This document shows, piece by piece, positions 16,897-60,038 of a stretch of DNA of 64,000 nt; position 1 is the first letter of the stretch, and each line of letters starts with the position of its first letter. The translations under genes were made by a program, and so were the position numbers. The notes beneath the pieces were generated by a model that was given only the letters and a program-made list of their open reading frames with translations, had not been told where the DNA came from and did no database searches. Origin of the DNA: a virus (Duplodnaviria; Caudoviricetes); IMG/VR virus record IMGVR_UViG_3300011008_000004, positions 32,001-96,000 of that record; one strand, given 5' to 3'.

Positions 16897-16905
16897 TAAT
16901 TTAGC
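16897..16905 (-). promoter_or_regulatory. GCTAAATTA candidate phage-specific promoter
   Basis: Identical intergenic 9-mer at six sites upstream of minus-strand genes. Confidence 0.6.
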
Positions 16906-37614: not shown

Positions 37615-37623
37615 TAATTTAGC
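37615..37623 (-). promoter_or_regulatory. GCTAAATTA candidate promoter inside the nrdD interruption
   Basis: Shared 9-mer, 15 nt upstream of the RHH start. Confidence 0.6.
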
Positions 37624-37641: not shown

Positions 37642-38934
37642 TTAATCTTTTTTAATCAATTCATATCTTTCAAAGTTGTTAACTAAATCTTTTGCTTTAA
37701 TTTCTACTTTGTCACCAGATACATTATCAACTACAAGAAGCACATGTTCAGGAGTAACTTCTAAAACACTACCATCTTCTGATTCTATCTTAATTAAATT
37801 AGGATACTCATTGTCTTTTATAAGTACACCAGTGATATCAGAATATTCTATCATATCTTTTTCAATATTATATGACATTGTTTCATAATCACTATAATCT
37901 TTACTGTGATTTATACAGAAAGTGCTAATTGGCATAGTAATAATTTTTAAAGATGTCTTATGTCTGATCGTTATCAACTCATTTCCCTTAAAACAACAGC
38001 TAGCTAATGCATCAGCTGAATCTGAATTATATAAAAAGAATGAATGACCTTTGGACCACATTTCAGCAGTGAAATCAGCCATTTCTTCATCTACATATTT
38101 ATGTGTATCTTTGTCCCATAGCAAATTCATTGTCTCAACAGGAAATGTGATAACATCATGGGTTCTTTCATTATTAAACCAATTCATAAACATTTTCTGT
38201 AATTCTTTTGTAGATTCCCAATTAGGTTCATCACCATCTGGGAATATAAAATCTTTAAATATTGAATTAAAATATCCCTTATCAAAATAAGCAATATTAG
38301 TAAATGGTGATTGATAACCTCTAGCGCCTGCAGGTTGATTTATACAGTAAACAAATTGTTGAAATAAATCTTCAATTTTATTTCTTAAAGTAGCTCTTCT
38401 ATTGCCAAAAGCTTCTACAGTTTCATCTAAATTTGTTATATAATCTTCACCGTAATCTACTCTTAAAAAGTGATCTAAATAAGGTAAAAATTCTGGAACA
38501 GCGACAGCCCCTGCAAATTGACCTGCTATTAAAAATACTAAATTTGTTAAACCACCTATAAATGAATCTGAATGTTTAGGCGGGCCACTTGTTCCGCCTA
38601 ACTTCTTTAAGCCATCTAATAAAAATGGATATAATGAAATAGCTACACAATATGGCATAATTGAACTCTCATCATGTGAATATATGATGTGATTTTTTAA
38701 ATCTAAATCAAACTGATCACACAACTCTTGGCCATATTTAATCAATAAATATTTCTTTGTTATAGCACGATTTACGTCTATAAAATCAGGCTTAGATAAT
38801 TCTGAAGACATTGTTGCTACATTCTTAGTAGTTACATTAGCATTAGCATCTACTTCAGAACCGGATGCAGCGTTACACGCTTGTTTATAATTCTCAATAA
38901 ATTTAAGTTTCTTATTTAAAGTCCTTTCATCCAT
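37642..38934 (-). CDS. nrdD: NrdD N-terminal half (313 aa) fused to a 117-aa split-intein N-fragment
   Basis: IYSHDES..PYC, QFAGAVA, QSPFTN, TFPV, DALASC|CFKG...EVTPEH...; ends at TAA. Confidence 0.92.
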   Translation of the reverse strand: MDERTLNKKLKFIENYKQACNAASGSEVDANANVTTKNVATMSSELSKPDFIDVNRAITKKYLLIKYGQELCDQFDLDLKNHIIYSHDESSIMPYCVAISLYPFLLDGLKKLGGTSGPPKHSDSFIGGLTNLVFLIAGQFAGAVAVPEFLPYLDHFLRVDYGEDYITNLDETVEAFGNRRATLRNKIEDLFQQFVYCINQPAGARGYQSPFTNIAYFDKGYFNSIFKDFIFPDGDEPNWESTKELQKMFMNWFNNERTHDVITFPVETMNLLWDKDTHKYVDEEMADFTAEMWSKGHSFFLYNSDSADALASCCFKGNELITIRHKTSLKIITMPISTFCINHSKDYSDYETMSYNIEKDMIEYSDITGVLIKDNEYPNLIKIESEDGSVLEVTPEHVLLVVDNVSGDKVEIKAKDLVNNFERYELIKKD

Positions 38935-39179: not shown

Positions 39180-39299
39180 AAAACCTCTCTTTTATAGATA
39201 AAACCGTCTATTGTTATAGATGGTTGTTACTATACAACTTCTAGCAATCTTAAATTTCTTGTGTTTAATTTAGCTCGTTTAAGACGATATAGACTATCC

Positions 39300-39420
39300 G
39301 TGAACTACCGATAGCTGAAGCAATCGGCTTCCTGCTCAATGCAACCACTGTTGCAAGTATCAACAGGCTAACCCCGTAGTCCCTACGGTTTTTATAATTT
39401 TTATACTTTATTGATTATAC
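39300..39420 (-). ncRNA. TnpB omegaRNA scaffold
   Basis: Structured right end downstream of tnpB with stems TGCAAC/GTTGCA and CCGAT/ATCGG; 5' boundary unknown. Confidence 0.65.
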
Positions 39421-40526
39421 AGAAGTCTAAGTCCTTCATTCAGAATATTTATTGCCGCATTCTGATCTCTATTATGATGTGTTCCGCAATCTGGACAAGT
39501 CCATTCTCTTATAGAAAGAGAATTTACAATATCTTTGTGATAACAACCACATTCAGAACAAACAATGGTTGTAGGAGTAAATCTTCCTATTTTAACTAAT
39601 TGTTTTCCTTGAGATTCTAATTTCTGTTGAAGTCTTGTTCTAAAATAACCAAAAGCATTATCCATAGTTGATTTTCCTAGTCTTAGTGCTTGAGATTGAG
39701 CTTTCATATCAATATCTTCAATACAAATTATATCATATTTCTCTGCAAGTTTCTTAGATTCTTTTTCAATGAAATCTTTTCTTTGATTAGTTATTTGTTC
39801 ATGAATTTTTGCAACTTTAATCTTTTGTTTTTCATAGTTATTTGAGTACAATTTCATATGAGATAACTTACGTTGTTCTTTAGCTAATTTTGGTTGAGAT
39901 TTCTTGAATAATTTTACAAACCCCTCAGGTTTATTGTTTTGGCTATCAACATAAAACTCTGGAGCGCTGTAATCTAATCCAACTGCTTTATTTTTGTCTA
40001 ATTTTATTTCAGGTATTTCATACTCATATTCAGCAAGAATACTTATGAAATATTTACCTGAGTTTGTTTGAGAAATGGTTGCTGATTTTATAATGTAATC
40101 TTGCGGAATGAATCTATGTTCAACAAATTTAATAGGTCCAAGTTTGGGAAGCTGGATTCTATTATTAGAGATAATTCTTATTGAATTGTTTACACAATTA
40201 GTAGTATAAGATTTTTTATCAAATTTTTTCGATTTGAATTTAGGAAATCCATTTTTAATATTTCTAAAGAAATTATTATAAGCTGTTTGTAAATGCATTT
40301 GCTCATTAGCTAAAGCTAAAGAATCAACTTCTTTTAACCAATCGAATTCTTCTTTGTATTGAGCAGGTGTGTTTTTGAGATTAACCTTATCTTTCTTATA
40401 AGCCTCAATTTTATCAGCTAACATCTTATTGTAGATAAATCTACAGCAGCCAAATGTTTTTTGTAGTAATATTTCTTGCTCTTTATTTGGATACAGGCGA
40501 TATTTGAAACATTTATTCATGAACAA
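39408..40526 (-). CDS. tnpB: RNA-guided endonuclease TnpB
   Basis: KYRLYPN HTH; RuvC D/E/D intact (GLDY, IEDI, RDQNAA); CSECG...CPDCG Zn finger. Confidence 0.95.
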   Translation of the reverse strand: MFMNKCFKYRLYPNKEQEILLQKTFGCCRFIYNKMLADKIEAYKKDKVNLKNTPAQYKEEFDWLKEVDSLALANEQMHLQTAYNNFFRNIKNGFPKFKSKKFDKKSYTTNCVNNSIRIISNNRIQLPKLGPIKFVEHRFIPQDYIIKSATISQTNSGKYFISILAEYEYEIPEIKLDKNKAVGLDYSAPEFYVDSQNNKPEGFVKLFKKSQPKLAKEQRKLSHMKLYSNNYEKQKIKVAKIHEQITNQRKDFIEKESKKLAEKYDIICIEDIDMKAQSQALRLGKSTMDNAFGYFRTRLQQKLESQGKQLVKIGRFTPTTIVCSECGCYHKDIVNSLSIREWTCPDCGTHHNRDQNAAINILNEGLRLLYNQ

Positions 40527-40783
40527 CTTCCTTACTAAAATAAAAATAGCTTATTTGATTGGCGGATCAAATAAGCTATAATTACTCTATATCAAACTAT
40601 TGCTAGTTTAATAACATTATAATATACAATATTGATTCCGCCAAATCAACAATAATCATTTCTGATTACAGATAATTTAGCTAATAAAATACATAGAAAA
40701 ATACCGAAATTCAAAGAATATTTCAAATCATCTAAAGCAATTCATCCGATGACTGAAGTCAAAGGATTTCCTGCTGAGTTAGG

Positions 40784-42073
40784 TTAAATTTCATACATTT
40801 TTACTGGACAATCTTTTAAAATATCTACAATATCGTCATACAATAAAATTGGTTGTTCTATCAATTTATCTTTAATAATTTCTAACAACTTTCTATTATT
40901 TTTTAATATTTTAGTAGCTTTATTGTAGAATCTATGAATCTGTCTAACAACTTCATCATCTATTCGTTTGCCACGACCAAAATCATTTCTTCCAGTAGCT
41001 CTCATATATTTAAAGCCATTAACACCTAAAGCACCAATAGCTAAATCCATATTATTTTTTAAATCTTTCAGATCTGAGAATGTACCTAAATCTATATCTT
41101 TAAATATAAGTTCAGTAGCAGCTTTACCACCTAAATCTATAATACAATTAGTAGCATAATCTTTATAGCTATAATTACATATTAAATTTTCTTCTCTCCA
41201 GCCATCACCTTTTAATGTAAAACCTCCAATATTACCACTAACTACATTAGATATCATATCTACTTCGCCACCTAAAGCTAATGCAACTATTGCATGACCA
41301 GCTTCATGATAGGCTGTTCTAAGCTTAGATTCTGAAGTAGCTTCACCATATGTCTCTCTAGTTCCTAAGACACCATGTAATAAAGCCTCTTTAATATCTT
41401 CTTTAGTAATGTATTGTCTTTTAGCGAAGCCTGCACTTAAACTTGCTTCAGATATAACATTCTTTAATTCAGCGCAACTTCTATTGCGCATAATTCTAGC
41501 AATTAAATCTGCTGGAACATCTAACTTATATGATGTGTTACTTAAATAATAATTTATAATAGCTAAAGCATCTGCATTATTAGGCATATCGAAATGCATA
41601 TGTCTACCTAATCTACCTGCTCTTTTTAAACTATAAGGTAATACGTCTATGTCATTAGCTGTAGCAACTACAAACACATCTTGATCCTGTAAATTATCCA
41701 AAATACTCTGAATAACGATAAATTCTTCATCATTATAGCGATCTTCATCACTTTCAGCGAATTTATCTAAATCATCTAATAATACAATTGAGGGCTGATT
41801 CTTTATAGCTTCTTCAAATGTAGCAGTTATATACTCTATAAACTTCTCATCTGGTTTATCTTTTCTAATAATATAACTATTACGTTTAGATTCATATAAA
41901 AGTGATTCAGCGGCTAGTGTTTTGCCCAAACCAGGTTTGCCATAGATTAAAATAGCTTTTGGTAAATCTACACAGTATTTCTTATATTTTGAAGTATGTT
42001 TCAACATATCAGCTATGCACCTTAAGTCTTTCTTAAAACTTTCATAGCCAATAATTCTATCAAATTTATCCAT
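40784..42073 (-). CDS. Soluble FtsH-like AAA+/M41 protease
   Basis: GKPGLGKT, RAGRL, AYHEAGH, LGGKAATE; no N-terminal membrane segments. Confidence 0.85.
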   Translation of the reverse strand: MDKFDRIIGYESFKKDLRCIADMLKHTSKYKKYCVDLPKAILIYGKPGLGKTLAAESLLYESKRNSYIIRKDKPDEKFIEYITATFEEAIKNQPSIVLLDDLDKFAESDEDRYNDEEFIVIQSILDNLQDQDVFVVATANDIDVLPYSLKRAGRLGRHMHFDMPNNADALAIINYYLSNTSYKLDVPADLIARIMRNRSCAELKNVISEASLSAGFAKRQYITKEDIKEALLHGVLGTRETYGEATSESKLRTAYHEAGHAIVALALGGEVDMISNVVSGNIGGFTLKGDGWREENLICNYSYKDYATNCIIDLGGKAATELIFKDIDLGTFSDLKDLKNNMDLAIGALGVNGFKYMRATGRNDFGRGKRIDDEVVRQIHRFYNKATKILKNNRKLLEIIKDKLIEQPILLYDDIVDILKDCPVKMYEI

Positions 42074-50210: not shown

Positions 50211-50244
50211 ATTTTCAATTTATAAGTAATTTAGCCACCTAAAG

Positions 50245-57669: not shown

Positions 57670-57977
57670 AAATCCTTTACATATGGATCTAAGAAATTCT
57701 TTATAGTTTCAGCATGACATCTCTTAGGCGCACACCAACAAAACAATCTTAATCTCCCATAAGCCTTATAAATTAAATATAGCCTTCTAAGTTCATCAAT
57801 GAACTCGTCTTCATCTTTTATTCGTTTATTGAAATATTCTATATACTTATCACAAACATCATCTCTAAATGATTCATCCTTCATATAAAAAGGATTTCCT
57901 AAAACTGATTCACGATCAACTCTAATGTCAAATGGTTGAGATGGTTTTTCGAAATGCATATTTTTAATTTCAATCAT
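57666..57977 (-). CDS. DUF4326-like protein
   Basis: R.S.LGNPF...CWCAPKRCHAE. Confidence 0.85.
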   Translation of the reverse strand: MIEIKNMHFEKPSQPFDIRVDRESVLGNPFYMKDESFRDDVCDKYIEYFNKRIKDEDEFIDELRRLYLIYKAYGRLRLFCWCAPKRCHAETIKNFLDPYVKDL

Positions 57978-58049
57978 AATTATTTATACAAAAACAAAAG
58001 ACTATCTAAAAGATAGTCTTTATCACAATTAAATTACCGTTGAAAAATA

Positions 58050-58517
58050 TTATTGAAACAATTTAAATGGATTGAATGTAAACATGTCATTCAACATGCT
58101 ATTCATCTCATCGACAATGTTGTCATATTCGCGCTTCGCTTCATCACCGGTGATGTATCTAACATAAGGCTTGTTAAATTTATCATTATATTCTACCATA
58201 GCATTACGCTTATCAGTAGCGGCCTTATCAACATTGTCCCCAGCTTCTTTAAGTATCTCATTAGCTCTTGCGTTAGCTTCTTCGATAATCTTACGTGCTT
58301 CGGCTTTTGCTTCATTATACGCTTCAACTGCTAAGTTGTAAGCATCTTTAGCTGCATCAATTTTGTCAGCCAGTTCTTTACGCTCTTTACTGATTTCAGC
58401 CTTTTTAATTTCTTCAGCCATGCGTTTTTCTTCTTGTGCTTTGTCAAATGCTTTATCAGCTTCTTTGCACTTTTCTACTGTGCTATATTCTTTTCCGTCT
58501 TTACCTATAATTTGCAT
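58050..58517 (-). CDS. Coiled-coil hypothetical protein
   Basis: ORF track. Confidence 0.65.
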   Translation of the reverse strand: MQIIGKDGKEYSTVEKCKEADKAFDKAQEEKRMAEEIKKAEISKERKELADKIDAAKDAYNLAVEAYNEAKAEARKIIEEANARANEILKEAGDNVDKAATDKRNAMVEYNDKFNKPYVRYITGDEAKREYDNIVDEMNSMLNDMFTFNPFKLFQ

Positions 58518-58583
58518 CTTAATCTCCTTTTCTTGAACTCCTTACCTAATAGGACTTATAGTTCAACCATATCAGATTTTATT

Positions 58584-58750
58584 GTGAACTACTTATTACT
58601 AAAGTAATAAGCTTCCTGCTCAAGTGTGCTATTGCACACAGTATCAACAAGCTATCCCTCGAGTTCCTCAAGTTAGTTTATTTAATTACCTTAATCGATA
58701 AAAGGTAAATTAAATTTTTTAACCTATGACTAAAGTCAAAGGTTATCTTT
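58584..58750 (-). mobile_element. Non-autonomous IS200/IS605 mini-element (orphan omegaRNA-like)
   Basis: Both ends homologous to the 39300-40775 element; no ORF. Confidence 0.75.
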
Positions 58751-58780
58751 TCTAGGTTATATGTTAACGGTAATTTAATT

Positions 58781-59980
58781 TTAATGTAAAATAATTCTAC
58801 ATATAGCTTCTATAACATTCTCTTTAGAAACTATAATTAAATTTTGACTAGGTGTTGATGTCAATCTTAAATCTTTAGCATATGTATCAGTTCCCATTAA
58901 ACTTGAACATGAACATACAACTGTACGATTCTTCTCATCTCCACTAAAGTGATGCAAATGAGCTGTACACAATAAATCCCAATGCTGTTCAGTCATCATT
59001 GATAATTTATCTACAGCAGTTACATGTGAGTCTTTATCGCCATGAACACCTAAAATCTTATGACCTAAAACTTCAAATGCGCAAATATCATCACCGTAGA
59101 AATTTTCGTTTATATTAACATCACAATCTTTTAATCTTTGCTCTAAATACCAAGGTGTCAATCTTTGCAATGTTTCAACAGCTAAACTTGCCTCTTTATC
59201 TGGTTCTAATCTAGAGTGATTATCTATAGTACTATAATATTCTACTTTTACATATTTAGACAAGTTATAAAGTAAATCAGCTAATATCTCTGTTACTTCC
59301 ATTATCTGCGTAATAACATCACATCTACTTTCAAGCTGAATGGTTTTATGAATTCTTCCAGCAATTAAGTCTGATAAATCTACTACATATAACTTCTTAA
59401 TGTTATAAAATTGTAATCTTTCAACTACTTTCTTAAATAATTCAGCTACACGTTTCTTACAGATTTCTGGACTATATTCATTTATAAAATTCTTAAAGAC
59501 TAAGCCATAGTGCCAATCACCTATCTCTAAAATAGCTTCATATTTAGCGTTATCTATATTTAAGCCTTCAACTATTTTATTAGGAATGTAAGGTTTTTCT
59601 TTAGCAGCAGCAATAGCAGCTTCTACTGCTATGTCTCTAATAGTTTCTTTACGTGCTAAATCTCTAATATATTTTCTATTAGCATTCGCTTCATCTCTAA
59701 ATTTAACACGTTCTTTTTGAAGATTTACTAATTCTTCTCTAATATCACTAACGTCATCGCAATAAACGCTAGATAATGCATTTAGTTTATCACAATTATG
59801 AATTCTGTAATATTCTTCAGAGTAATCTAAACCAAATGCTTCATTTACTAGATTCTTTATATTTGACCAAGTAAGTTTATTGTCATCACTTTTAACTTTA
59901 ACTAAATGGTCTATAAATTCAGAGACTGACATTCCTTCAGCTTTATCTAATAAATTGTCATAAAATTCTTTATCTATCAT
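58781..59980 (-). CDS. Metallophosphoesterase-fold protein (nuclease-like)
   Basis: GDWHYG, SDLI.G, DNH.R, VHGD, AHLHH. Confidence 0.75.
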   Translation of the reverse strand: MIDKEFYDNLLDKAEGMSVSEFIDHLVKVKSDDNKLTWSNIKNLVNEAFGLDYSEEYYRIHNCDKLNALSSVYCDDVSDIREELVNLQKERVKFRDEANANRKYIRDLARKETIRDIAVEAAIAAAKEKPYIPNKIVEGLNIDNAKYEAILEIGDWHYGLVFKNFINEYSPEICKKRVAELFKKVVERLQFYNIKKLYVVDLSDLIAGRIHKTIQLESRCDVITQIMEVTEILADLLYNLSKYVKVEYYSTIDNHSRLEPDKEASLAVETLQRLTPWYLEQRLKDCDVNINENFYGDDICAFEVLGHKILGVHGDKDSHVTAVDKLSMMTEQHWDLLCTAHLHHFSGDEKNRTVVCSCSSLMGTDTYAKDLRLTSTPSQNLIIVSKENVIEAICRIILH

Positions 59981-60038
59981 TTAAGCCTCCACACCATAAC
60001 TAATTTAGCAGTCACGATGTTAATTGAAAACACTAGAC

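Follow-up and report, generated by a model that had tools for sequence, protein, structure and literature searches.

The window analysed here is a stretch of 64,000 nucleotides (bases 32001-96000 of a virus record that measures 214,257 bp and has direct terminal repeats), and all of its long ORFs lie on the minus strand. Between two phage genes (58781-59980 and 58050-58517) we found a segment of 173 bp, window 58584-58756 on the minus strand, which starts CCTAG right after TATAA and has GTAGTTCAC as its final bases. This mini-element, carried by a 214-kb phage, is a gene-less and non-autonomous derivative of the IS200/IS605-family TnpB elements, of the PATE/MITE type. The preliminary description of this DNA had seen no gene in it, and we agree: the ORFs that overlap the mini-element, called with translation table 11 and with TAG read as Gln, are all 57 aa or shorter and were discounted as chance ORFs.

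The mini-element was compared with a larger element of the window, A, which has an intact tnpB. On the minus strand A consists of a left end, tnpB, about 108 nt of structured RNA and an end GTAGTTCAC at 39300, and the catalytic and zinc-finger residues of its TnpB are invariant with relatives. The plus-strand stretches that had been quoted for both elements were found at their places. On the minus strand the two have linkers GTTGATACT and TTGAGCAGGAAGC and the end GTAGTTCAC in common, while the hairpins between the linkers differ in sequence and still pair, just as had been described. The left-end hairpin is kept in the mini-element, again as described, and in the window its motif is present at the mini-element and A alone; the common linkers have the same distribution, TTGAGCAGGAAGC in exact copies. 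Both ends of the mini-element are also recognisable in A, and its identity to A is about 73%. A further element, B, lies beyond the window in the same genome. The features are collected in Table 1.

Two other genes of the window are of note. A is inserted at the stop codon, part of TTTAA, of a gene for an FtsH-like AAA ATPase with an M41 peptidase (window 40784-42073, minus strand). An NrdD-like ORF (anaerobic ribonucleotide reductase; 37642-38934, minus strand) has a weak terminal match to Intein_splicing at residues 348-418 (26.4 bits, below the Pfam cutoff of 35.8 bits), and an intein or a homing element of another kind may lie within this gene.

Table 1. Coordinates of the mini-element, its parts and related features (window positions unless stated otherwise)
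Feature	Position	Strand	Remarks
Mini-element TAM, TATAA	58757-58761	-	directly 5' of left end; empty-site join 58583/58757; B alike
Left-end 5' segment CCTAGAAAAGATAA	58743-58756	-	from cleavage point to left-end hairpin; 13 of 14 bases as in B
Left-end subterminal hairpin CCTTTGAC-TTTA-GTCATAGG	58723-58742	-	imperfect palindrome with T.T mismatch; hairpin type common to A and B
AT-rich spacer	58681-58722	-	no confident counterpart in A or B; no GCTAAATTA motif; 7-bp hairpin at 58686-58708
omegaRNA scaffold, full length, 97 nt	58584-58680	-	92.6 bits with covariance model R1, over its positions 1-99
P1 hairpin	58658-58672	-	CTTGAG-GAA-CTCGAG; in A CCGTAG-GGA-CTACGG
Long-range helix CTTGTT/AGCAGG	58646-58651 with 58615-58620	-	within scaffold
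P2 hairpin	58624-58639	-	within scaffold
P3, the right-end hairpin	58592-58611	-	within scaffold
Scaffold 3' tail TAGTTCAC	58584-58591	-	its GUUC pairs with P1 loop GAAC (pseudoknot)
Predicted guide AATAAAATCTGATATGGTTG	58564-58583	-	flanking DNA directly 3' of right end; boundary from empty site
GCTAAATTA copies	60001-60009, 40673-40681, 39266-39274, 37615-37623, 50227-50235, 16897-16905	-	
Element A, IS605 family, full-length, tnpA-less, 1484 bp	39300-40783	-	boundaries by analogy with mini-element
A tnpB, intact, 372 aa	39408-40526	-	Pfam HTH_OrfB_IS605, OrfB_IS605, Cas12f1-like_TNB
A omegaRNA scaffold	39300-39396	-	95.9 bits; guide flank starts at 39299
A putative TAM, TTTAA	40784-40788	-	overlaps stop codon of upstream gene; by analogy
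Element B, 1497 bp	G000 195800-197296 (loci L006, L170), beyond window	-	whole-genome search; scaffold 95.4 bits

Insertion site and mobility of the mini-element

We aligned contigs of four public runs to window 57800-59600. In DNA run X2, a contig of 667 nt (contig 12) spans 58039-58583 and goes straight on to 58757-58878, so that exactly 173 nt are skipped. There were no inserted letters, no ambiguous or shared letters at the join and no target duplication, the last of which is the IS200/IS605 expectation. The contig differs from the window at three positions in 667 nt (99.5% identity), none of them in the TAM or the 20-nt target. Since it joins 58583 to 58757, the limits of the element are 58584-58756; the range of 58565-58750 in the preliminary description differs from this and includes most of the guide flank. 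From the empty site, TATAA also follows as the TAM and AATAAAATCTGATATGG as the guide, and the X2 contig represents a natural target allele in which TATAA stands directly 5' of the unchanged 20-nt flank. Insertion-free phage variants, which had been proposed as something to look for, do therefore exist, with TAM and target intact. The insertion-bearing form was found in runs X1 and X3. Run X3 also contained contigs with the same right end that diverged exactly at 58584, a weak hint of further copies elsewhere in metagenomes. The mini-element is real and recently mobile.

The guides predicted for the different elements had been reported to differ, and they do, because each guide is the DNA that flanks another insertion site. 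The only exact copy of the mini-element guide in the genome is its own flank, which has no TAM, and no TAM-flanked match to the guides of A, B or the mini-element was found elsewhere in the 214 kb. Searches for related sites in databases were negative: megablast of the mini-element and A loci against 50,697 phage records gave no match, and for the two genes located immediately upstream of the mini-element and of A, a search of IMG/VR, made in order to find empty sites, yielded no relatives. An exact search of IMG/VR with the left-end hairpin gave two matches, both in unrelated coding sequence, which we rejected as chance.

No match to the Y1 transposase TnpA (PF01797) was found in the phage genome. 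Several relatives in other phages have the end of a tnpA-like ORF directly upstream of tnpB, so the gene pool that the mini-element shares with them contains sources of TnpA. In its right-end hairpin the mini-element has a perfect stem where A and B have a T.T mismatch, and its competence for TnpA is for that reason uncertain.

The omegaRNA scaffold and its relatives

A covariance model (R1) was built from nine omegaRNAs linked to tnpB in other phage contigs; this genome contributed no sequence to it. In the 214-kb genome it matched exactly three times, always at its full length of 99 positions, namely in A, B and the mini-element (bit scores in Table 1). The match of the mini-element has an E-value of about 2e-20, its alignment is free of non-standard pairs, and it ends at 58584, where the empty site places the right end; the guide is accordingly flanking DNA. 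Chance similarity of the mini-element to an omegaRNA is excluded by this independent model. A scan of this kind had been suggested as a search for more copies; B, which came to light in a search of the whole genome, is among its matches. The model found one gene-less copy in the 214 kb, where several copies per genome would be usual, if not strictly defining, for a PATE. Against Rfam 15, the window gave no family match at any position.

Relatives of TnpB(A) were gathered from IMG/VR and bacterial genomes. Throughout the family the same architecture follows the tnpB stop codon: P1, a linker G(A/T)TAGC(C/T)TGTTGATACT, P2, the linker TTGAGCAGGAAGC, P3 and an end G(T)AGTTCAC. In some members P2 has a long insertion. 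P1 is a third covarying hairpin in addition to the two of the preliminary description, and two further pairings were found. A long-range helix of C(Y)TGTT with AGCA(R)G covaries among nine phage copies (RNAalifold), and in a pseudoknot, kept in the mini-element, the P1 loop GAAC pairs with a GUUC located 3-6 nt before the right end. Among 68 distinct family members, in an alignment that was fitted to the model and hence somewhat favours the structure, standard pairs fill 92.8% of pair cells, compared with 63.6% in shuffles and at most 42% for slid partners, and 24 of the 27 scaffold pairs show compensatory changes. The pseudoknot is paired in 92.6% of cells (83.9% in shuffles), with compensatory changes in all four of its pairs.

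The compensatory variants of the pseudoknot (alignment A4, loci L008-L168) are GAAC/GUUC, GGCA/UGUC, CAAC/GUUG and GGAU/GUCC. The least conserved pair of P1 is its closing pair, as expected under competition with the pseudoknot.

In ISDra2 an omegaRNA scaffold of 116 nt suffices, the 5' part that overlaps tnpB being dispensable, and the nucleotides just before the guide form a pseudoknot with the 5' part of the scaffold (PMC10097598). By this analogy, the 97-nt scaffold of the mini-element, which corresponds to the part behind the ORF, is plausibly complete. The mini-element keeps a left end, a right end and a full-length scaffold, which bears out its earlier description as a non-autonomous element descended from a TnpB transposon. 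Where it shows compensatory differences from A or B, these may predate the loss of tnpB and are no proof of selection on the RNA afterwards.

The nearest relative of the mini-element is not the intact element A but B, 105 kb away: the left end with its hairpin is identical at 33 of 34 positions and the right-end part at 71 of 85, and a 32-nt block over P2 and the following linker is the same in both. The TAM of B, TATAA, assigned from the identity of the first bases, precedes a left end nearly identical to that of the mini-element. The middle 54 nt of the mini-element are without confident counterpart in A or B; when we tried to trace them to the last codons of the B tnpB, global alignment gave only short scattered blocks.

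In the tnpB of B, the position of the conserved Gln of YPxxEQ is taken by an in-frame TAG, a codon that probably stands for Gln. This reading of TAG in the phage is supported by two tRNA genes (anticodon CUA; G000 c2606-2680 and c163136-163233, beyond the window; aragorn). Apart from this codon, the single lesion is a frame change by one base within a T6 run (..ATT TTT TAG A..; G000 about 196170-196185), where a +1 shift restores GFGIF-RSYL and the open C-terminal RuvC/zinc-finger part. B may be a very young pseudogene, may contain an assembly error, or may make use of slippage at UUU-UAG. TnpB(A) and TnpB(B) are only 47-57% identical. Either could be the partner of the mini-element RNA. Since the TAM is TATAA in the mini-element and B and, by analogy, TTTAA in A, use of the mini-element RNA across these elements is something we infer.

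Scaffolds that have lost their tnpB are also found in other phages. In ten related phage records there were 22 scaffold matches, 19 of them with a full tnpB, one (L180) behind a 5'-truncated tnpB and two in gene-less minis (L183:1421-1600 and L189:270-415, IMG/VR). Both minis contain entire scaffolds (52 and 99 bits, respectively) and are situated between phage genes or beside a tRNA gene; the left-end hairpin is clear in the first and probable in the second. TnpA should need only the terminal hairpin, yet the whole scaffold is kept in both, which fits selection on the RNA, with n = 2 only.

Expression, proposed action of TnpB in trans and alternative explanations

The promoter-like motif GCTAAATTA is found upstream of many genes and in the leaders of A and B; the mini-element does not have it. 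On the coding strand of the window there are six copies where 2.8 are expected, one of them inside the left-end leader of A; the leader of B, beyond the window, has the motif as well. Its position in these leaders suggests that the transposons carry a phage-type promoter for tnpB. A scan for sigma-70 promoters and terminators around the mini-element gave nothing above shuffles. With neither a convincing promoter of its own nor the motif, expression of the mini-element would depend on read-through. One copy, at 60001-60009, precedes the gene that lies immediately upstream of the mini-element, and the two are not separated by any terminator-like site, so read-through transcription followed by processing by TnpB would be the likely route. 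In X10, the one metatranscriptome run that shares words with this region, contigs cover 58157-58424 and 58974-59188 in the neighbouring genes and none covers the mini-element, which, as these are contig data, is uninformative either way.

Taking these results together, we think it somewhat probable that the omegaRNA of this gene-less PATE/MITE-type element works with a TnpB in trans; loading of its RNA by such a TnpB is plausible. The mini-element would be transcribed within a polycistronic minus-strand message with its start upstream of gene 58781-59980, and the scaffold would be bound and trimmed by TnpB from A, or from B should the frameshift there be bypassed or reflect an assembly error. 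The complex, with 16-20 nt of flank as its guide, would then cut the insertion-free allele, in which TATAA is followed by AATAAAATCTGATATGG. In a mixed infection the cut allele would be repaired from the insertion-bearing genome, and the mini-element would be over-inherited together with flanking markers (transposon homing). In an alternative outcome, the mini-element would be restored once a TnpA supplied by the host or by a different phage had excised it.

One nuclease could in this way serve three dispersed guides, those of A, B and the mini-element. That the three form a multi-guide homing and marker-exclusion system directed against insertion-free relatives in mixed infections, with one TnpB and three dispersed guide-RNA modules, seems doubtful to us. 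If true, this natural state of 'one nuclease, several unlinked guides' would stand between the omegaRNA of a transposon and an arrangement like that of CRISPR. With its amber codon and its tendency to frameshift, tnpB(B) might provide temporal control in a phage that recodes TAG.

The mini-element could also be an inert passenger, a recently moved or formed PATE that persists through TnpA of the host or a co-infecting phage, or through its youth, and keeps the scaffold as part of its right end without TnpB ever using the RNA. We regard this as possible rather than probable. There is a single gene-less copy without its own promoter, the cognate-type tnpB in B is frameshifted, and relatives in other phages with Y1 tnpA beside tnpB offer sources of TnpA. 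Gain or loss must have been recent, the flanks of the empty-site strain being 99.5% identical, and there was little time for decay. Against this, TnpA requires only the subterminal hairpins and cleavage sites, yet P1, P2, the long-range helix and the pseudoknot are all intact both here and in the two independent gene-less minis of related phages, and the mini-element scores as high as the tnpB-linked copies. The loss of the right-end mismatch of A and B likewise fits selection on the RNA better than recognition by TnpA.

Exaptation as a cis-acting RNA, a TnpB-independent processing, stability or attenuation element between 58781-59980 and 58050-58517, would be in keeping with the intergenic gap of a same-strand gene train and with a fold more stable than shuffles (z = -2.5), but it is most improbable given that a 99.5% identical strain cleanly lacks the element, which is thus dispensable, that a terminator-like site was not found and that the omegaRNA family model explains every conserved position.

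Comparison with known systems

A gene-less element with an omegaRNA is not a new kind of system. The concept has been published by Meers et al. (2023), who describe PATE-like elements of Geobacillus stearothermophilus and state that PATEs in many cases code for omegaRNAs for which TnpB would have to act in trans (PMC10055086). Like those elements, the mini-element is without genes, has the end hairpins of a co-resident TnpB family, keeps the omegaRNA and is presumed to depend on TnpB and TnpA in trans. Unlike them, it resides in a large virulent-type phage genome instead of a bacterial chromosome, is present as a single copy with no tnpA in the same genome, and has a closest full-length relative whose tnpB is damaged; in addition, it has a natural counterpart allele that is free of the insertion and intact in TAM and target. 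The case is an unusually clean natural one: the limits are exact, TAM and guide are defined, and a wild allele without the insertion still has its target. The proposed action in trans is directly testable, including the idea of TnpB elements as homing drives between co-infecting phages, and two phage variants or a plasmid would be enough.

With tnpA-less, IS1341-like TnpB elements of the IS605 family whose omegaRNA derives from the right end, such as ISDra2 (PMC10097598, PMC8612924) the mini-element shares a scaffold that ends at the right end, a guide formed by the flank, a 5-nt T/A-rich TAM 5' of the left end and a pseudoknot between the pre-guide nucleotides and the 5' part of the scaffold. 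It differs from them in having no tnpB and in a scaffold that lies wholly downstream of the would-be end of the ORF, and the likeness meant here is one of architecture.

Homing of transposons between co-infecting phages has been put forward as a theoretical mode (2026 review, PMC13565253). The outcome proposed here would resemble that of the free-standing homing endonucleases of T-even phages, or 'transposon non-restorative homing' (PMC13565253), in that the insertion-free allele of a co-infecting relative is cut and the insertion is copied together with flanking markers. In contrast to the T-even endonucleases, specificity would come from the RNA of the inserted element, with the nuclease gene elsewhere in the genome. 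Altae-Tran and colleagues reportedly described, in 2021, standalone (effector-less) omegaRNA loci of OMEGA systems for which a nuclease in trans was proposed or reported. Such loci and the mini-element have in common a guide-RNA scaffold without an adjacent nuclease gene; the mini-element, however, is not a domesticated RNA gene and is still a bounded transposon with a left end, a right end, a TAM and an empty site.
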